NCBI RefSeq assembly: GCF_030684315.1
Contig: NC_081396.1
Coordinates: 5,394,001-5,458,000, forward strand
Source of the DNA: Stegostoma tigrinum
Taxonomy: Eukaryota
DNA length: 64,000 bases
Reading direction: 5' to 3'
Of the stretch, positions 30-64,000 are shown in pieces. The notes beneath the pieces were generated by a model, which had not been told where the DNA came from, did not search any database, and was given only the letters and a program-made list of their open reading frames with translations. Numbering within the stretch: position 1 is the first letter of the stretch; every line of letters begins with the position of its first letter. The translations under genes were made by a program, and so were the position numbers.

Positions 30-68
30 GGTTCTTGTTCAGGGGAAGCTGAGAGGAGCACTACTGTG
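30..68 (+). promoter_or_regulatory. Recombination signal sequence (23-bp spacer) 5' of J segment
   Basis: Nonamer GGTTCTTGT (30-38), 23-nt spacer (39-61), heptamer TACTGTG (62-68). Confidence 0.9.
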
Positions 69-118
69 ATATTATGACTATGTAGATGGATCCGGAACGG
101 TGGTGACTGTCACAGCTG
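69..118 (+). CDS. NAR-TCR (IgNAR-like) joining segment, YYDYVDGSGTVVTVTA
   Basis: Follows a 23-RSS; xGxGTxVTV FR4 motif with Asp in place of Phe/Trp (as in VNAR-type FR4); phase-1 donor G|GTAAGT at 118/119; splices in frame to the leaderless V at 2892. Confidence 0.88.
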
Positions 119-2240: not shown

Positions 2241-2891
2241 ATAAAACAAATGGATCTGATTCAAAAACAAACAAAGCAAACAAGTTGGTCTAAAACTAAT
2301 CGAATTTCATGGACAAAGGAAAATTCTAGAAAACGATTGACCTAACTGGTTCTGATCAATTACTTCGTTCATATTGGATCTTAGTGTGCATTTAGGTACA
2401 TCTCTGTCGGGTTAACTTTGGACAGCGGTTTTCATAAAGAGTCTCAACTAGTATGAGAAGTTCCCTCGGTTCGTGTTTGACTGCAGTAAATAGAACAAGA
2501 AACATAACATACATCACAGAATCATATAGGGTAGCATTCAGCAGTCGTGTGGTTACAGTTCTTTTTACAGTTCATTTCAGTTCATCCTACTGTATTTGTT
2601 ATCCCCCCATAGCCCTGCGTTTTCTGCCTGTTCAACTGTTGTCCACTACCCATTTTACTGTTCAATCAGGCCAAAAGCACTCGTATTGGCAGTTCATTCC
2701 ATATCATACGAAGACAACTTAGAAAAGAAAAATGTCACCTTGTTTCTTCAGCAGTTTATGTTTCGATCGAAGAGAACAGGTTCAAATGGGCTATCGACAA
2801 AGTTAACTGTGACAGAAATCAGAACGATTCTTTGGTTATTTACAATTTTCCTGTGGCTGAATAATTAATAATGCGCAATGTCATCCCGCAG

Positions 2892-3201
2892 ATTCCAGTT
2901 CGCTGGTATCCCAGAGTGTCCCTGTCCAAACTTCTGCTGCTGGTGACACCGTTACTCTAAGCTGCACATATTCAGGATTCTGTCAGTACACACTTTATTG
3001 GTACAGTCAAACCCCAGGACAGGGTCTGAAATACCTCCTTCAAAGAGATACTGCAGGAGAGAAGAATAAAGAAAATGCTTCGAGGGGACGGATGTCTGCA
3101 TCTATTGATCCTGAGGCGACAATCAGTCGGTTAACGATCTCTCAAACTCAACACGCTGATTCTGCTGTTTATTACTGCGCAAGGATTCGGCGCTCGACAC
3201 A
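2892..3201 (+). CDS. NAR-TCR supporting TCR delta V segment (leaderless V exon)
   Basis: Acceptor CCCGCAG at 2885-2891; open frame (D)SSSLVSQSVPVQTSAAGDTVTLSCTYSGFCQYTLYWYSQTPGQGLKYLLQRDTAGEKNKENASRGRMSASIDPEATISRLTISQTQHADSAVYYCARIRRST with C23, W41, YYC104 and an extra CDR1 Cys; no leader exon found between J and V; followed by a 23-RSS. Confidence 0.92.
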
Positions 3202-3240
3202 CACAGAGATAGAGAGCATGGAGGGAACTGTACAAAAACC
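3202..3240 (+). promoter_or_regulatory. V-proximal 23-RSS
   Basis: CACAGAG (3202-3208), 23 nt, ACAAAAACC (3232-3240). Confidence 0.93.
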
Positions 3241-3540
3241 TGAACATGCTGAGGATTACCAATGCAGTGATACAGAACTGGCAGAGGGCAGTATAAAAAT
3301 TTGATTATGGTGGGATTGCAGACACACAGTGGTACAGACCACAAAGTGCGCTGTACAAGAACCAGAACATGTTGGGAATTACCAATGCAGTGATACAAAA
3401 CTGGCAGAGTGCAATATAAAAAATTGCTTATGGTTGGATTGCAGACAGACAGTGGTACAGGTCAAGGATAGAGCTGTACAAGACCTGAACATGGTGGGGA
3501 TTACAGGCAGAGTGACACAGAAGAATCTGTATAAATCCAT
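3202..3540 (+). repeat. Tandem array of RSS-containing 61/62-bp units (123-bp higher-order repeat)
   Basis: Heptamers at 3202 CACAGAG, 3263 TGCAGTG, 3325 CACAGTG, 3386 TGCAGTG, 3448 GACAGTG and 3508 CAGAGTG. The first five each have exactly 23 nt before a nonamer (ACAAAAACC, ATAAAAATT, ACAAGAACC, ATAAAAAAT, ACAAGACCT). Confidence 0.92.
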
Positions 3541-5325
3541 ATTTGCAGAGGTTTGTCGAGCTCGACTTTGAGGCCAGGCTGAGTGGATTGCCGGTCCGGA
3601 CTGTTCAGGATCGTTTGTCACCAAACTCTCCGTGAGTAAATGGCAACTACTGTTTAGCAATCCACTGTCTGTCGGGTAAATGCCTTATTCATAGGAAGAA
3701 TTCTGGGTTTGTTGTAAATTAGCATGTGATATATGTTGCTACAACTTTACACATTATTAATGTAAGTCAATCAGTAAAGCTGGCGTGTTACATTTTACAC
3801 AAGAGTTGCGCTGTATGAGCACATTCATCAATAATATTTGTATTTTAATTGGACAAGTATTGGAACAGGCTATCTGTGTTGCACTATTGAGAAACAGCAA
3901 GGGCCTGGGGACTGATTGGTTTCCACTTTTATGGGTATGGGGCGGATGCATAGTTGAATAATATTACTCTGAGTTGTATGATTTTATGATTTTAAATTTC
4001 ACTTCCTATTTGTTTAAGAAAGAAAATTCAAGTAAGCATTCCCACATCAGTGAGACATTTAATTTCCAGAATCATGTTTCCAGGAATGACCCAGTTGCAT
4101 TTTATCACTGTTCCCAGAAAGATCTATCTAAAAGCATAGATTCATTAAATTGAACACCGAAGATCAGAAACAGACACTTCTGACAGAATGAGACTTTAGG
4201 AAACGTTCTTTTCGTGTTTCAGTTCAATTTTCTCTCTATTTTCAGCCATTAGCGGGCTCAACATCATTGGCTTCAAATCGATTGGAATTCCACAGTTCAT
4301 TTCATCGTATTTCTACAATTACTATATTCTGTTTGTGGTTTGTGCCACCGTGGGAGCTTCTCCCAAAGTTGTCAGTTGATTTCAGTTTGTGCAGGCTCCA
4401 CTGTGGTTTTACTGTTACTCACTGAGAACTGCCTTCTCAGCGTCTCTGACAGCTGAAATTCCCTCCAATCCATTATTCGATTCTCTCCCATGTTCCATGG
4501 CCCTAGCTTTCTCTGAACTTCATATTACGCATTAGTTCCGAAGAGGCACAGGATATTTGCCAAATTTGACAGCACTTATGTTTATACATCACATGAGTCT
4601 CTCTCTGCACTACGTATAGTGATATTTCAACAGTTGGAGACATGTACCCATTTATTCCCTTCTCCATACAGTATTATCTCTGTTCCACCCTCTCTGAATC
4701 TCAGTTGTTGTATTCTGTTCTAATGTCTCTTTGTATGAGTACTTTTTTCTGAACATCTCTTCATGTTCTTTCAGTGACTTTTGGTATTGAGAGCTCTATG
4801 CCATGCAGTCATGCAGAACAACGATTTTCAGAATTTGCTTCGCTTAATCCATGCATCATATATTAAAAAAAAATCAGTCACCTCCTGGTTCTGTGCCTTC
4901 CTAAGAAGAGAGATCCAACCGTTTCAAATTCTTTAGAAAGATCTAAATTGCTGAGGCACTTTTTTGCACTCTGAGAATGAACCGCCCTAACTTAAAGATT
5001 AGAAATACGGAGGTACATTACAACCTCGAATTGGCTCTGCCATTTCATTTAATAGTGGTTGAACTTCTCGAGGCTAACATAATGTCCCCACTTGCCTGGA
5101 TGAGTTAAACTCTAGTGAGACCCAAGGCATTCGAAGTCATTTTGTTCAAAAATACAGCTACTTTGGCTCTCACTGCACACTTTATATCAGACACGCAATA
5201 ATAGGAATATGCACAATCTACATGATGCACTGCAAAATGGAGAACATTTGAACATGATGAATTTCACATAGTATATGAATCGATCTTGATACTTGTCGGG
5301 ACAAACGCAAATTATTTGAATTTGA

Positions 5326-5902: not shown

Positions 5903-8749
5903 TGAATTATACATGTGGCTGTTTCTTAGTTAATGAGTTACCAGTCCTCATTTTTATTTGGCTAATGCCTAGCACGTTAATGTGTTTTCACGTCTGTGCC
6001 TTCGTTAATATTTTCCTTTGTACTAAATACTGTAGTACAAACTCTATCTCTTTTGTGGTTACAATTCCTTATTGGAATTAATCTTAATGCCAGGGTTAGA
6101 ATGTTGAATGGATACAAACTGTAGTTGTACTCTATCTTACTTATTATACATTTCAGTTTTCTCTGTCCCTCTTACTGTCACCAGGCCATGACTATTATTG
6201 TACTAGTCCATGCCTCCTTGATAAATAGACTGAACACGCATTTAATAATAGTACACGACTTTATTAATCAAATCTGATCAAATTACTGCATCAGTTTCTA
6301 TCTCTGTTCGGTTGCATCTCATGGCGTTTAGCATTTCTCACTCAAAATGTCTATCTATTTATTTCTGTGAGACTGGAATCTGCATCAATTACTGCTGTAG
6401 CAGATGTATCATTGTTTATACTTCACGTCATTTCACCATTTCTTATTTTATTCATATTACGCTCCACCCTGTCTTTGTTTACAATAGGCTGCACCATGTC
6501 TCTGCTTGTATTAAGCTGGGCTCCATCTTATTTGTTCTTTGTCGAGACCGTGTCGGTGGCATTTTACAATTACATGTTATTTATTGGTTTCAACCATGCC
6601 TGGGTTCATAATGCACATTGAGCTGTATTAATTGTTACGGAAATATTATATGTCTCTTTTAATGTTTCACATCGTCTGTCTCTGAGAACACTGTAGTCGG
6701 CTAAGTCTTATTTGCTACCATACTAAAATATGAACTTTTCTGCATTACATTAAACAAGTCTTAGTTGCTGATGCACTTGTGACAATATACTTTTTAATGC
6801 CATCTTCAAATTACTCATTAACCTGACGTTTCTCTAGCTATATCAAACATTGGCATTGGTCAATTGTTCCTGCAACAGAAACTCTGAACAGAAAATTCAG
6901 CAATTGATTCTTGCGCTTGTGATTAATCTGATTCGATGAAGGATTTTTTCAGACTCAACGAGATTAAAAGTTCATTTCATAGCCCCCACCATATTAATCG
7001 ACCATATTTGAAAACTATGCTTTCCAATTGACAGCTGTAAATTTACGGAAATGTCCAAGCAACGTTAAAATATTAATTATGAGATCACATAAGAAGTAAT
7101 GGAAAATCTGAAGTAAGGTAACGCTTGAAATCAAAATTAAACATGCAGATGGCAGAACTGACAAATGGAAAATAAAGTTTTGAAACAGGGACTCAGCTCA
7201 GTGTCTACGAACAGCGGATCCACTTCAAAAAGACTCAACACCATTTTACGTGCAGTTGGATGAGCCAAAGAAATTAAAATGAAGCAGTTCCAAAAGTGAA
7301 ATATAATCATTCATCTTGTTGAAAAACGTGATAAAGTGAGTTAATCACTTTGTCTATCGAGCTGTAAGTTCTATGTTGTAATGCAATTGTTCCTCTCAAG
7401 CATATCACGCAGAATAAACGAGGGCCCTTTTAAATGTGTTGCAAAATCAAACTTACACAGTGACAAAAAGTCCTACATTTTCTGAACAAAGATGCTGGAG
7501 CCAGTCATTGCTCTCCCCCGCCCCACCTTTTTTTAATCATTGCTGTTCAATTATCACTGGTATTACAGCTCCTGGTAAGCCGTTGATGCTCAAGAAATTC
7601 ACTTTCATATTCATGATTTACCAGAAATGGTAACTTCTCAAGCATCTTCTAGGAAAGCAAATATATTGCATCTTATAGACAGCTGTTTTAGATATCCTGC
7701 TTGTTCACTCCCTAAAGAATCCAACAAAATTTGTGAGACAGCTTTTTCCCTTAATCTAGGTCTGTCGACTCTGCTTGATTAGGTTGTACATTCCTGAATA
7801 TTCTGCTTTTAAATTCATCATCATGTACTCTGGCATTCTTGTATATGCAAATCTGAAGAAATTTAGTCAATGATTTTTTTTTGTTCTCTCCCCTTTTGGA
7901 ATGAAGATTTTGAAATATAATGCAAAAAATGAGGAACAAACAACGTCAGATGCAGTTACAGCAGGCCGGAGAGATGGGCCCACATACAGCTACTTCGGGA
8001 GAAGCAAAGATCAGAATGAATTTAACGTCCAATGAGAAACGTTAATGTAAAGCGAATTGAACAAAAGCGTTTTTTTAACTGTATGGGACACTAGATATCC
8101 CATGGGGGTTTGTTCTATCTGTTTTTTTTATCTGCTCTGCTAGTAGCAAAAGGACAACATGTCAACATGAAAATGTTAAATAGCTTCAGAACTTTTTAAA
8201 AAGCTGTTTCTTCCACTTTGCGAATATCTTAAAAGACTTTTCATTTCACTTTTTCATAACTTGACGTGCTTCAGAGTTTCCAATTTCTGAAAATCCTGCT
8301 TTTTTATCCAGGGGTGACAATAAAGACTGCACATTGGGCCTGTGTATGGGTTGATGCTACTGTGAATTTAAATTGTTCTCTGATCGAATTGCTCGTGACT
8401 TTCAACCCTCACTAGTGCAGTTGCAAAGATATGCCATCAGAGGTTGGCACTGTGTAACATGAATGATAAGGCGAAGGGATCAGGACAAGAGACAGTGGCC
8501 TTCATTAATTCATTATCATGCCTTCAGACCACATATCTCCCACTGCAGCTTCCACCATTTTTTTTTTCTGGACAGAATTTACATCATTTAACGTATTCTA
8601 CAGAAGAACAGTTCTGATCTTGAACTTGTATCTAACTGAACACTGAGACAGACTAACAACACGATATGCAGAAACATACACACAGAGCACCATACTCAGA
8701 AAGACACGAAAACATATATGGACAGGAAAATAGTCATACAAATACAAAC

Positions 8750-27994: not shown

Positions 27995-29201
27995 ATGCAG
28001 CTGTCTCTTCCCTTTCTGGTCTCGGCGACTTTCACTGTTGGTAAGGGTTTAGACTTTAAAAGAGGGTTTAATGACTGGAAGAATAAATTTGTAAAAAATG
28101 TATACGCAAGTTAGACAAGTATGGGAGTTGGACTAAAACATACTTGGTTTTTGGTGTGCACTTCAGGCCTTTGTCTCACATGACGAATGAAGGAATGTAA
28201 AACACAACGAGAAAAAAAACATGATTTTTTGTTATGTTGCTGGAATTGAGAGATTATAACTGACAGAAAATAATGTGAAGTCTTGGGTTCCTTTCTTTAC
28301 TAATGAGAATACTATGGGTAACGTGACTGTTGCCTTTACAAAGTTGAACATATCGTAGGTTCTGGACTTGTAGTGGAATATTCCACTTCAGTAGGACGCC
28401 AGAATTGTAAATTTTAATAGAAAATTTAAGTGGCACAAAACTATCCAATGACGATTTTAGGAGAGATAATGGGAACTTCAGATGCTGGAGAATCCGAGAT
28501 AACAAAAGGTGGAGCTGAATGAACACTGCAGCTTGGCCTGCTGTGTTCATCCAGCTCCACACGATTTTAGGAGACATTTGTTTAGCCAGAAATCAGATAG
28601 AATGTGTTTGCCATTACCAAAAGGAACATGTAGAATGCGAAACAAAGATGCATATAAAAGGAGACCAGATGAACACACGAGAGAGAACGGAATGAAAAGA
28701 TTTTTTGGTCGAAGTAGAGGGGAAAAAGGCAGAATGTCTGTGGTTATTCGATGCATGACCTATGCCTAACGTTCTGCGTGAGATTTTCTTCTCTAAGTTC
28801 TATCCTTTCTTTAGGTAATACTATGAATTTTCAAATTATGTTTGCTTCACTCAAACATTTAATCGCTGATTGCCATTTTCTCTAACTTGTGTGACAGATC
28901 TGAGCAAAGGGGTATCCGTTGGTCAGCAGGAACCCTCGCTCACACAGACAGAGGGAGAAGATGTCTCTTTAAACCGCACTTACACTGATGATGCTGATTA
29001 CTTCTTCTGGTCCTGCCAGTCACCAGGCAGACAACCTGAGTTCGCACTCTGAATGTTCAAGAGCGGTGGTGCTGAATTGACAGCGGATTTCGCTCAGGTC
29101 CAGTTTTCAGATACAATCCAGCAGTCAGACAATTTGTACCAGTTGACCATTTTGGCGTTTCTGCTTTCTGACACCGCTGTCTATTACTGTGAAATGAGTC
29201 T
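27995..29201 (+). pseudogene. TCR alpha/delta V pseudogene (leader 27995-28040, V exon 28898-29201)
   Basis: Leader MQLSLPFLVSATFTV G|GTAAGG; DLSKGVSVGQQEPSLTQTEGEDVSLNRTY (C23>R)...FWSCQSPGRQPEFAL* (TGA 29050-29052)...SDTAVYYCEMS; RSS CACAGTA, 23 nt, degenerate AGAGTAACT. Confidence 0.9.
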
Positions 29202-29429
29202 CACAGTAATGACTGTGAGTGAAAACTTCGAAGAGTAACTGCCACAGGGTTTTTAGGTCACAGCTGCTGGTTGTTGAGGTTTGCACATACACACGAGAAC
29301 TACAGGACATTCTTGTGAGGGAGAAAAGCCCAAAGGACAAACGACTTACAGTTGCTCATGCCGAATACGAATTCTGAATGTCGTATTGAACGCTTGAGAA
29401 CCGAATTCGCTACTTTAACCTCACTGCGA

Positions 29430-43504: not shown

Positions 43505-43678
43505 NNNNNNNNNNNNNNNNNNNNNNNNNNNNNNNNNNNNNNNNNNNNNNNNNNNNNNNNNNNNNNNNNNNNNNNNNNNNNNNNNNNNNNNNNNNNNNNN
43601 NNNNNNNNNNNNNNNNNNNNNNNNNNNNNNNNNNNNNNNNNNNNNNNNNNNNNNNNNNNNNNNNNNNNNNNNNNNNNN
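43505..43678. other. Assembly gap (174 N)
   Basis: Run of N. Confidence 1.
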
Positions 43679-52869: not shown

Positions 52870-53351
52870 ATGGGAATAAAACTCTGCCTGGCTCTGGTTG
52901 TTCTCTTGGTTACAGGTCAGTTCTGCTGAATCTCCAGACTAAATACACAAATCATCATTTTATTTTCCAGTTCAATCTCCAGGAGATTACTTCTTTCCCA
53001 ATCCTTCTCTAACCCATTTTTGGTTCGCTGTTTCATTTCAGACATGAGTAATGGAGACTCGGTTTCCCAGTCAGAACAAGACGTTGAAGCAGTAAAGGGT
53101 GAAGATTCAACAATACCTTGCACTTACACAGTATCTGATGCAGCAACAAGTTATAACCTGTTCTGGTATCGCCAGTATCCGCAGCAAGCTCCTCAATACT
53201 TGCTCAGAGCCGATAGTTATGGATATAATGATACAGCTCCTGGCTTTGGGCACTTAAGTGGGAATCTCAACAAGGAAAAAGGCACTTTCCACTTGAGCAT
53301 GAAGGATTTGAAGCTGGCAGACAGCGCAGTGTATTTTTGTGCACTGAGGCC
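52870..53351 (+). CDS. TCR alpha/delta V segment, canonical and probably functional (leader 52870-52915, V exon 53042-53351)
   Basis: Leader MGIKLCLALVVLLVT G|GTCAGT; acceptor TTTCAG; DMSNGDSVSQSEQDVEAVKGEDSTIPCTYTVSDAATSYNLFWYRQYPQQAPQYLL...LKLADSAVYFCALR with C23, W41 and C104 intact. Confidence 0.95.
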
Positions 53352-53390
53352 CACAGTGAATGATGGTGCCAAGCACCCTATACAAAAACT
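53352..53390 (+). promoter_or_regulatory. 23-RSS
   Basis: CACAGTG, 23 nt, ACAAAAACT. Confidence 0.95.
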
Positions 53391-60064: not shown

Positions 60065-60447
60065 ATGGGAATCTTTGTTCTTTTCGCTCTGTGTATCTGA
60101 TTAACCCGTGAGTACCTATGAAGATTGCTCTTTTGATTCAATGTAACTTTGCCCACGACCATGCCATTGGAATGTCGCCACTGGGTTTGTGTACTTTGTT
60201 GTTTTGAATTGATCTAATTGCCCACTAAAATTCCTTCTGTTTAATTCCCAGGCTCTATCAGTCAGTCAGTCAGAGCCAAACAATGGTCATCAGGAAGGAG
60301 TGCCAATCTCTCGCCATCACTAGTATGTACAATAGGCACATGTGGGGTTTTCAATGAATGGAGAAGAAACGACATTTTCACTGGATATGTGAGAATTGAA
60401 GACACCGCCACCGATGACTTGTAAAGCTCATTTTGATTGCTATGAAA
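60065..60447 (+). pseudogene. NAR-TCR (IgNAR-like) V pseudogene (leader 60065-60107, V remnant 60252-60447)
   Basis: TATAA at 60035; leader MGIFVLFALCI*LT |GTGAGT resembles the IgNAR leader (MNIFLLSVLLAWLP) with W>stop. V remnants VSQSQTMVIRKECQSLAITS (FR1 with non-canonical Cys, C23>S) and TFSL / VRIEDTAT / CKA; central part deleted; heptamer-like CACAATT at 60448. Confidence 0.75.
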
Positions 60448-60756
60448 CACAATTTAGAACACCTCAGTATATGAAACCTGAACAACTGCAATAAAGGTAC
60501 AATTAAAATATGGTGCTTGTGGTTCCAGATTGTGAATTACATTCTTTCATATCTGTATATGTGACACAATTTCCTTTCATCTTCCTTTTTGGTGCCGTAA
60601 TTCTGTGATACTCTTTTCCATTTTCATGATGCACAAAACTATGGTCAATGTTCCTCGGCAATCTCGCTAGTATCTCAGAGTCTCAGAAATGAACGTTTGA
60701 GCTAATAGAGTCTGAGAAATATGAAATATTGTTAATTGGTCACAATCTTAGGAATA

Positions 60757-61420
60757 TTAGGCAGAGCCTAATGGCGTGTTGGCCTTCATAACAAGAGGAA
60801 TTGAGTATATGACCAAAGAGGTCCTTCTGCAGTCATGCGGGGCCCTGGTGAGACCGCACCTGGAGTATTGTGTGCAGTTTTGTCCTCCAAATTTGAGGAA
60901 GGGCATTCTTGCTATTGAGGGAGTGCAGCGTAGGTTCACGACGTTAATTACCGGAATGGCGGGTCTATCATATGTTGAAAGATTGGAGCGACTGGGCTTG
61001 TATATGCTTGAGTTTAGAAGAATGAGAGGGGATCTGATTGAGACGTATAAGATTATTAAGGGATTGGACACGCTGGAGGCAGAAAGCATGTTTCCGCTGA
61101 TGGGTGAGTCCAGAACCAGAGGACACAGTTTAACAATAAGCGATAGACCATTTAGAACAGCGTTGAGGAAAGACAACTTCACCCAGAGAGTGATGGATAT
61201 CTGGAATGTTCTGCCCCAGAAGGCAGTGGAGGCCAAGTCTCTGGATACTTATAAGAAAGAGATAGCTACAGCTCTTAAAGGTAGTGGAATCAAGCCTTAT
61301 GGGGATAAGGCAGGAACAGGATACTGATTGTGGATGATTAGCCATTATCATAATGAATGTTGGTGCTGGCTCGAAGGCCCGAATGGCCAATTCCTGCACC
61401 TGTTGTCTGTTGTCTATTTC
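60757..61420 (+). mobile_element. 5'-truncated CR1-type LINE (relatively young), inserted between NAR-TCR V and J
   Basis: 183-aa ORF LAFITRGIEY..KEVLLQ..ALVRPHLEYCVQF...GVQRRFT..GLSYVERLERLGLYMLEFRRMRGDLIETYKII...RTRGHSL, plus 3' UTR GCTGGCTCGAAGGCCCGAATGGCC. Confidence 0.92.
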
Positions 61421-61487
61421 CTGTTGTCTTTGTCTATTGTTTAACCAATTGTCTTCTCACATCGAATCGTCAGACTAACCTACGAGG

Positions 61488-61525
61488 GATTCTTGTACTG
61501 GGTGAGTGAGAGCAGTGTGACTGTG
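61488..61525 (+). promoter_or_regulatory. RSS (22-nt spacer) of second NAR-TCR J
   Basis: GATTCTTGT (61488-61496), 22 nt, GACTGTG (61519-61525). Confidence 0.75.
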
Positions 61526-61577
61526 AAGGAAAATTATACTCTGAATTGATCTGCTGCTATTGTGACTGTCACAGCAA
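61526..61577 (+). pseudogene. NAR-TCR J pseudogene, KENYTLN*SAAIVTVTA
   Basis: Shares GTGACTGTCACAGC and about 50 nt of downstream intron with the J at 69-118; first Gly of the GxG motif is TGA; donor A|GTAAAT. Confidence 0.85.
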
Positions 61578-61639
61578 GTAAATAACTCTTAATGCCGCCT
61601 GTTACAGCCTGTCTCAATTAATATTCCTTGTCAGCTCAT

Positions 61640-62760
61640 TTTTGAGCATTTTGTTCCTTCAATCTTCCTGTGGGAGCCCAGAGAGAGAATTCCCATATCT
61701 GGGTGAGTTGTATCAAAAGCGGTTGTGGGAAAAGAGAGCAATTCAAGGAGGCCATGACCCAAACCTTTAATTTCATTCTGGCCACATAGGAGTTCCAAGA
61801 GAACTGGAGGCTGCCAATGCAGCTCCAATTTTTATGAAGAATGGTAAAAATAAACCAGGGAATTGTAGACCATTGAATATCATATCAGTGACAGGGAAAC
61901 GACTACAGAATATTTTGAAGGACAAACTCGATTCCACTTAGAGACACAAGGCTTGATCAGACACAATCAGCATTTTTTTTTTTGTTTGTAAGAGGCCATG
62001 TTTGCCAATTGATTGAACTTTTCAAGGTGGTGATCATGTGTGTAGATAGTTAATGCTGTCGATGCATTTTATATGAATTTTAGCAAAGCCTTTGACAAAC
62101 CAGGTGACTGATAAGTAACGTAAAATTTCTTGGCAAATTGGATCCAGTTTGGCTCAGTGGTAGAAGGCAGAGGTAACTGATAGAAGGTTGTTTTTGTGAC
62201 CGGAGGCCAATGCACAATCGTGTAACCAGAGATTTTTGTTGATCTCCGAACGGTAAGGCAGAAATTCTTGTGTTAAAGGAATGTATAGGCAGGTTGCTCA
62301 GCTGGGCAGATCAATGACAGATGGAATCTAACTCCGAAAATGCCCTTAAGGGATAGAATCGGCCATATTTACCTGTTCTGTCCTACTCGTGAGTCCAGCC
62401 TCACAGGAATGTGTTTGACTGTTACTTACCCCACAGACCGTGAGAGATGGAAGTGAGAGATGGACAAAACTTGTTAATATAAATAACATGCCCACACCCC
62501 GTGAAGATTGTTATGAAGGTGATGCATTTTGGAAGAAGTACCAAGACAAGGGAGCCCCAATGAATGACAGGAAGCTTAGGAGTTAAGAGAAACAGAAGGT
62601 TTTTTGGATGCTTGTCTACAGATACCTGAAGCAAGAAAGGTTGCTTAATACAGCAGTGAAGAAAACATACAAGACGCTATTTATTAACCATCATAGAAAG
62701 ACTGAAGAGCACGGAGGTTATATACGAGCTGTACAATACTTTGTTTAGTCCACGCCTGTG
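61640..62760 (+). mobile_element. Decayed CR1-type LINE ORF2
   Basis: PGNCRPLNIISVTGK, YMNFSKAFDK, QLGRSM.MES / VMHFGRS remnants with many indels. Confidence 0.7.
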
Positions 62761-64000
62761 AATTTATGCTTCAGAGATTCAATACATACAGTAATGGCCT
62801 AATGGCCTTCTTTTGCTCTCGGGTCATCCTGTAGCTCTATTTTATGATTATTTGACGGCTCTCGGGTTGGATCAAGTTGCATACAGTCGAATCTTGCTTT
62901 GGGCTGAGATGTAATATAGGAAAAGCCAGCAACTGCAACTTCCTCTCCAAGCAACTTGGCATCCTGATGTGGAACTATGTTGCCATTCTTTCATTGTCTC
63001 CGGTTCAAATCTGGAAAATCCCTCCCTAATGACGTTGTGTGTGTAGTTGCAGTTTCTTGTTTTTAAAAAAGCACAACATCTCCACGCTCTGTGACTTTTT
63101 TTATTGCTTTACGAACCTGCTTCACACCTCTAAAACACTGCTGCCCATGACTTCGTGTTCATGTTTTATGAATAGCTACTGTTAAACAAACTTCTTACAT
63201 ATACTACAACTTCTAGCTCCGTGTTGTCGCAGCGTCTACCTGTACAAACCTCTGCTGCATTTAAAATTAATTTAATCTGTCAGTATTCACGATGCAATCA
63301 GTATACAGTTTAATTGTACCATCAGTCCTTAGGACAAACTCTGAAGCACCTGCTTCAGAGGCGCAGTTAACAACTCGGTAGCAGAATAAAGAAAATACTG
63401 CCAGAGGAATAATTCCTGCTTCCACTGATCCTGCGGCAAAAATCAGCCAGTTAATGGCCACGAAAATACAACTAAGCGACTTCACTGTCTATTCCAGTGC
63501 TTGAATTGATGCTCAGCACACACATCGATACACAGCACAGAGGCATTTAGAAAAAAAAAACTTACAATGAAGCTTCGTAACTATGAGGCTGGAATATTAG
63601 AAAATTGAAGATGCAGTCTATTTCTTTCTAATATTTGGTAATTGATTTGTTATAAAGGAAGCCTTACAATTTAAAGTATTAATCTGCATGTCACGAAGAT
63701 TGCCTAAACTTCAAGCTTACTAGATCATTGTTGTAGCAGGACGTGATGAAAAAGATAGGCCGTCAAAACTTAAACAGGTATGCATAGATTTAGCAATGAA
63801 TTACACGTTTGGTTGGACAAATATTGGAACAAATCAAATATGTAAATTCTGGGGAAGATGCAACGATACAAGAACTAATTGGGCTATACCTTTCGGGGGT
63901 GGGAAGATATACAAATAAGATCATCCATATTGTATGATTCTATATTTCGAAATTTCTATTTATATTTTACTTCTGGAAATCTAACCAAAAGCAGCATTCT

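Follow-up and report, generated by a model that had tools for sequence, protein, structure and literature searches.

V segments normally carry one RSS, and the knobs of bovine ultralong CDR H3s come from a long, Cys-biased D segment together with hypermutation. The closest described relatives of the locus studied here are the supporting TCR delta V segments of NAR-TCR in cartilaginous fish, in which a J segment and an intron precede a leaderless V with a CDR1 Cys and a 23-RSS at its end (PMC1845163, PMC12227049, PMC3457774); the absent leader and the CDR1 Cys characterize the TCR delta V that is associated with NAR-TCR (PMC1845163). Assembly of a NAR-TCR takes two independent rearrangements (PMC5931798, PMC12227049), and its supporting V is not regarded as the domain that binds antigen (PMC3457774). 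Use of an alternative RSS has been described at mouse TRBJ1-7, TRBJ1-2 and TRBJ2-6, where a farther RSS is, rarely, cut and the nearer RSS is kept in the coding joint (PMC6857471).

The window analyzed here, a stretch of 64,000 nucleotides from Stegostoma tigrinum, holds a NAR-TCR J segment at 69..118 of the plus strand (YYDYVDGSGTVVTVTA, GT donor at 119-120), and the RSS scan located its 23-RSS on the minus strand at 30..68 (heptamer CACAGTA, nonamer ACAAGAACC). The J motif at 69..118 is the one that links VNAR to the supporting V in homologues. A V exon that lacks a leader was found on the plus strand at 2892..3201 (AG acceptor at 2890-2891) and ends in YYCARIRRST. The splice phases of the J segment and the V exon match, giving TVTA-DSSSL as in the homologues. 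The exon was recognized as Pfam V-set (E 2e-15), has the extra CDR1 Cys (YSGFCQY) and was up to 75.5% identical to the second V domain of shark VNAR-J-V models, the supporting V homologues lying at 54-76% identity. By these sequence features, the array-bearing V is identified as a supporting Vdelta without leader from a shark NAR-TCR cassette, whose VNAR and D segments would lie before position 1. This V differs from the described supporting V segments in that five RSS units, instead of one, lie behind it. This tandem RSS array is a real variant and possibly an undescribed one; the available portions of the literature searched (PMC12227049, PMC1845163, PMC6795676, PMC5931798, PMC13433984, PMC3457774) contain no description of an RSS array behind a NAR-TCR supporting V, and a prior mention is possible.

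Unit alignment placed the whole array at 3202..3507 (+) and divided it into five units of 61, 62, 61, 62 and ~60 nt, each consisting of a heptamer, a 23-nt spacer, a nonamer and a linker of ~22 nt, with a possible weak sixth remnant at 3508-3559. Tandem Repeats Finder yielded a period of 123 (2.3 copies, 84% matches) and also a period of 62. The V-proximal 23-RSS, RSS 1 (3202..3240, +), has the heptamer CACAGAG, with an A at heptamer position 6, and a perfect nonamer. RSS 2 (3263..3301, +) is decayed (TGCAGTG, ATAAAAATT); the TGC of its heptamer is the Cys codon of YQCS, and a TGA that is a stop in the V frame lies directly 3' of its nonamer at 3302..3304 (+). The best signal of the array is RSS 3 (3325..3363, +), a near-consensus 23-RSS with CACAGTG and ACAAGAACC. 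RSS 4 (3386..3424, +) is a decayed copy of RSS 2, again with TGCAGTG and followed by TGC in place of TGA; units 4 and 2 are identical at 56/62 positions. RSS 5 (3448..3486, +) has the nonamer ACAAGACCT and a heptamer, GACAGTG, that has lost its CAC. An earlier note on this DNA had named the 3325 RSS and had taken the CAC at 3448 as not intact. A CAC heptamer, a 23-nt spacer and a nonamer were present together in two of the five units (3202 and 3325) and absent as such at 3263, 3386 and 3448. These two sites were the only matches to a strict RSS pattern in the 64 kb, and 0/100 shuffles reached two. In zebra shark P0045, the closest homologue (75.5% identity), the first heptamer has one mismatch, compatible with the CACAGAG change, and a weak V-proximal heptamer may be common to P0045 and the window.

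Contigs from sequencing runs X1 and X2 showed 0 differences from the window over 2650-3850, which, as they may be from the source DNA, is a check of the assembly and not of the population. An assembly error at the TGA was not supported, both contigs matching exactly (though possibly source DNA). The bisulfite runs X5 and X6, of which ~1% was read, yielded 1 and 3 reads, none covering 3304.

In mouse/mammalian RAG assays, pairing is almost lost when a 12-RSS carries an A at heptamer position 6, and the loss of the third C of the heptamer blocks cleavage in mammalian RAG assays (PMC7337519). We tentatively prefer, at somewhat less than an even chance, the reading that the array acts at the DNA level as a set of extra RAG targets, with the Cys-containing frame as a by-product; the RSS anatomy at a 61/62 period and the unconserved peptide described below support it. 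No distal-RSS join was seen in the records analyzed, which counts against it. With two NAR-TCR rearrangements needed in cis, additional signals would let the leaderless V be captured more often. If a distal RSS were joined, RSS 1 would also stay within the joint and, as a second try, could be paired once more with a 12-RSS still present downstream. Either effect would be useful because NAR-TCR needs two rearrangements. In this cassette, 3325 would often be cut first because the RSS 1 heptamer is weak, and its joint would hold the TGA and be non-productive, so that a second join at 3202 would be needed. If mammalian RAG rules hold for shark 23-RSSs, the cassette would depend on that second join or would be poorly productive. 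The TGA sits 21 nt inside the 3325 coding end, and the earlier claim that a 3325 join is non-productive unless about 21 nt are trimmed was correct, 21 nt being needed.

A signal left after the first join likewise permits a second rearrangement in VH replacement, through an embedded 3' cryptic heptamer (PMC3526766), and in TCR alpha receptor editing (PMC5931798), whereas in the shark array the V would retain a full 23-RSS of its own and would be the donor again. Germline DNA is retained at mouse TRBJ when the farther RSS is cut, as is proposed for the array, but the extra signals there are single, dissimilar, cryptic and rarely used (PMC6857471), in contrast to the tandem homologous units at a fixed period that appear to exist in several shark lineages.

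The V frame was found to continue through the array in units of 61+62 nt, with the peptide, coordinates and frame given in the earlier note, and its single internal stop, the TGA at 3302-3304, does lie opposite a TGC at 3425-3427. The open reading frames that start at 3092 (ATG) and 3329 (GTG) and end at 3302-3304 and 3569-3571 are all in the V frame. When stops were compared by frame, 3200-3571 contained one in the V frame, 5 and 6 in the other plus frames and 2, 2 and 2 in the minus frames. With 5000 shuffles for each null, the probability of at most one stop in the fixed V frame was 0.0016 for a dinucleotide shuffle and 0.007 for a repeat-aware shuffle; with heptamers and nonamers fixed, it was 0.021 for the V frame and 0.030 for any of three frames. 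The V frame is modestly more open than expected by chance, and this openness beyond the nulls (P 0.007-0.02) counts against the DNA-level reading and in favor of the earlier note. For the 41 codons that a 3325 join could carry, the corresponding probability was 0.16.

Much of the openness follows from the sequence of the unit itself, which sets the phases of the stops. In the majority unit, no stop occurs when the heptamer begins at codon position 3, one at position 1 (the TGA behind the nonamer) and one at position 2, although this argument is partly circular, the majority unit having been built from the same five window units. Along the 123-nt dimer, the V frame takes heptamer positions 3, 1, 3, 1 and 3; two stops are expected and one was seen. 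The frame would be mainly open because a unit one base longer made a 123-nt dimer, so that the V frame meets only the 0-stop and 1-stop phases, and the second expected stop would have been lost by one A-to-C change. Nonamers 1 and 2 have TGA behind them, and a further TGA partly coincides with the end of nonamer 5; nonamer 3 is followed by AGA and nonamer 4 by TGC. As TGA is the majority state after the nonamers, it is likely the usual sequence there and TGC likely the derived one, which reverses the earlier view of the TGA as a broken TGC.

That view belongs to an alternative in which the array encodes a Cys-rich module of 41 aa, kept by selection to build ultralong CDR3s rich in disulfides, and in which a TGC was recently damaged to TGA. 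We consider this very improbable. The V-frame array does contain 8 Cys in 124 codons with one stop, its TGA stands opposite TGC, and its openness exceeds the nulls, but TGA is the majority state, found also behind nonamer 1 and over the last bases of nonamer 5. Moreover, it is the decayed heptamer that encodes the Cys of YQCS, its TGC accounting for one Cys per copy. The description of the repeats as Cys-rich suits copy B, with 5 Cys in 41 aa, and does not suit copy A, with 2 Cys plus the TGA stop; only copy A can be reached from an intact distal RSS (3325), and copy B needs the dead 3448 signal. A Pfam search of 3305-3568 gave no match. The two copies differ at 21/123 bases (9, 8 and 4 by codon position), and 1 of the 19 altered codons is synonymous. 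In the V frame, pN was 0.194, pS 0.09 and pN/pS 2.15, from 21 differences only and with low power; in the other two frames pN/pS was 0.56 and 1.07, also from few differences with low power. No purifying selection on the array peptide was detected in this low-power comparison of copies A and B.

The homologue set consisted of 82 proteins minus 4 non-shark proteins, and a supporting V was present in 68 of the remaining 78; in VNAR-J-V gene models from sharks and a sawfish, it is the V domain that comes second. Thirty-two of the 68, all non-orectolobiform and one of them a partial record, stop no more than one residue from the first heptamer, and back-translation makes CAG TGA the most likely stop. 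Another 15/68 are spliced, rearranged or unrelated past the V, and 21/68 read through into apparent genomic sequence. The orectolobiform supporting V ends 4 nt longer before the heptamer, which puts the first-heptamer stop out of the V frame there. The window array was matched by 17 of the 21 read-through tails in tblastn, with 0/100 shuffles as good. A second unit is entered by 12/21, which come from Rhincodon, Hemiscyllium, Stegostoma and Pristiophorus and include the contig product P0006. From such back-translated protein records, whose searches favor open frames, we infer tandem arrays in whale, zebra and epaulette sharks, a sawshark and P0006, and an array that is old and common to other sharks. 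Five full RSSs can be fitted to the tail of P0006, at 22, 83, 144, 205 and 266 nt and hence at an exact 61-nt period (0/200 shuffles), and the tail is open for 102 aa across the five signals; P0006 is missing the CDR1 Cys. A word-index search with the array part of P0006 returned only P0006 itself, and a full HMMER scan added P0014 alone. Metagenome scans for the tandem-RSS pattern gave 0 matches, and 2 metagenome matches to a 21-base window motif were set aside as chance, neither having a V or an RSS. In the window species, X1/X2 contigs of other cassettes aligned to 3157-3281 without gaps (20 differences); by eye, among the matches listed, they have linker-like loose ends, one with a lost heptamer.

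The distance from the Cys codon to the first heptamer is 22 nt in P0006 and P0037, against 26 nt in the window and most orectolobiform tails, so that the frame entering the array varies among lineages. The idea that the V-end frame is private to the window was dropped, the 26-nt offset being common to orectolobiform homologues. The periods, as back-translated, were 122-nt dimers in P0014, 120-nt dimers in three Hemiscyllium models and plain 61-nt monomers in P0006; the 123-nt period of the window is not common to the homologues, which, with the single synonymous change between copies A and B, argues against a Cys-rich module. The 21 tails were 4 to 102 aa long and contained 9 Cys in 615 residues (1.5%), with 0-2 per tail. 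Two tails, of 34 aa in whale shark P0038 and of 32 aa in zebra shark P0050, end where the window TGA lies, a further point against a recent lesion. Whale shark P0014 has Lys at that position and no stop, and the stop-free relative that the earlier note had imagined does exist; the stop-free homologues are Cys-poor, however, and the Cys-rich, knob-like route to CDR3 drawn from it is not supported. The likeness to bovine knob antibodies is confined to the proposed outcome, a long Cys-containing CDR3; the shark array is without a D, has a stop in frame 21 nt from the coding end that a knob-type donor would use, and has no conserved Cys (2 in copy A, 9 in the 615 residues of the tails). The Cys-containing open frame is likely a by-product, and this holds under the DNA-level reading and equally under the neutral and Cys-poor readings considered below.

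Nine of the 21 tails (P0006, P0014, P0037, P0041, P0046, P0048, P0049, P0054 and P0082) stay open as far as a later CAC-compatible heptamer, ~60 or 120 nt on, which counts against the DNA-level reading, though the protein search favors open ORFs. Together with the openness of the window frame (P ~0.02) and the rare alternative-RSS joins of mouse TRBJ (PMC6857471), these tails would fit a route by which RSS choice extends the CDR3 of the supporting domain in steps of ~20 aa wherever the frame is open, giving a Cys-poor spacer or loop, with the window cassette disabled. We judge this unlikely. The other 12 tails end without having reached a further CAC heptamer spaced by the period, 32/68 homologues end at the first heptamer, frames vary among lineages, no purifying selection was seen, and a distal nonamer is visible among the tails only in P0006 and P0046, the former without the CDR1 Cys. 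Array sequence was found in 0/2 rearranged V-J-C proteins, P0040 and P0044, whose CDR3s are 19 and 14 aa (two proteins, from other genes); genome-based models spliced to J/C (P0020, P0027-P0030, P0067 and P0068) were excluded from the expressed junctions. For the RSS-choice route of the earlier note, alternative-RSS use at mouse TRB is a precedent (PMC6857471), and the Cys-rich product is not supported. The compound claim that the arrays are ancient and undescribed across sharks and that RAG choice lengthens the CDR3 in ~20-aa steps where the frame is open appears improbable.

A second NAR-TCR cassette, which is broken, lies at 60066-63560. It has a leader with a stop at ~60066, a VNAR start fragment at ~60252, a J with RSS at 61488-61577, a frameshifted supporting V at 63211-63520 that is 68% identical to the first, and a decayed RSS with an A-tract nonamer at 63521; no RSS array was found behind this supporting V (63.2-63.6 kb). 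The missing array of this pseudo cassette is in line with a neutral relic, in which an ancestral tandem duplication of the RSS was spread by cassette duplication and unequal crossing-over and has since decayed, with only RSS 1 of any importance and the open frame again a by-product. This explanation is possible, though we doubt it. Three of the five window heptamers are without CAC, which fits neutral decay as well as it fits extra RAG targets and so counts against the latter; a dead unit was duplicated alongside a live one (units 2 and 4, 90% alike), unit 2 looks dead in several homologues, and unit lengths drift among homologues, to ~59-63 nt by back-translation. Pure decay is harder to reconcile with the units back-translated from orectolobiform sharks, a sawshark and P0006, the last of which allows five consensus RSSs spaced by exactly 61 nt, or with the distribution of differences between copies A and B, which by raw counts affect 3/32 signal bases, 12/46 spacer bases and 6/45 linker bases.

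The linkers might also be D-like segments that retained only their 3' 23-RSS, their G-rich core recalling, as we presume, TCR delta D segments. They look conserved to the sawshark tail P0037, with 8/9 residues identical over 3312-3338. This origin is scarcely credible, however; no 5' 12-RSS was present in the array on either strand at the thresholds of the RSS scan, and TCR D segments are flanked 12/23 (PMC3457774), so that a V with a 23-RSS could not join such a linker.

A tandem RSS array maintained, across several shark lineages, behind the supporting V of a receptor that rearranges twice would represent a novel means of tuning V(D)J recombination: one V might be captured more often, a second try might be built in, or CDR3 might be lengthened step by step. 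Were CDR3 extension the true reading, recombination-signal DNA would itself be read as receptor protein. A disulfide-rich knob route would be more striking, but the comparative evidence opposes it.

Other elements of the window were also recorded. A conventional, intact-looking TCR V at 53010-53390 ends in YFCALRP and has a single near-consensus 23-RSS at 53352, with no RSS array behind it. A lone perfect heptamer with a 23-nt spacer and a three-mismatch nonamer at 7456-7494 has no V-like frame upstream and is probably a chance RSS-like site. A V pseudogene at 28870-29230 has an in-frame stop and no good RSS, and an assembly gap of 174 N spans 43505-43678.
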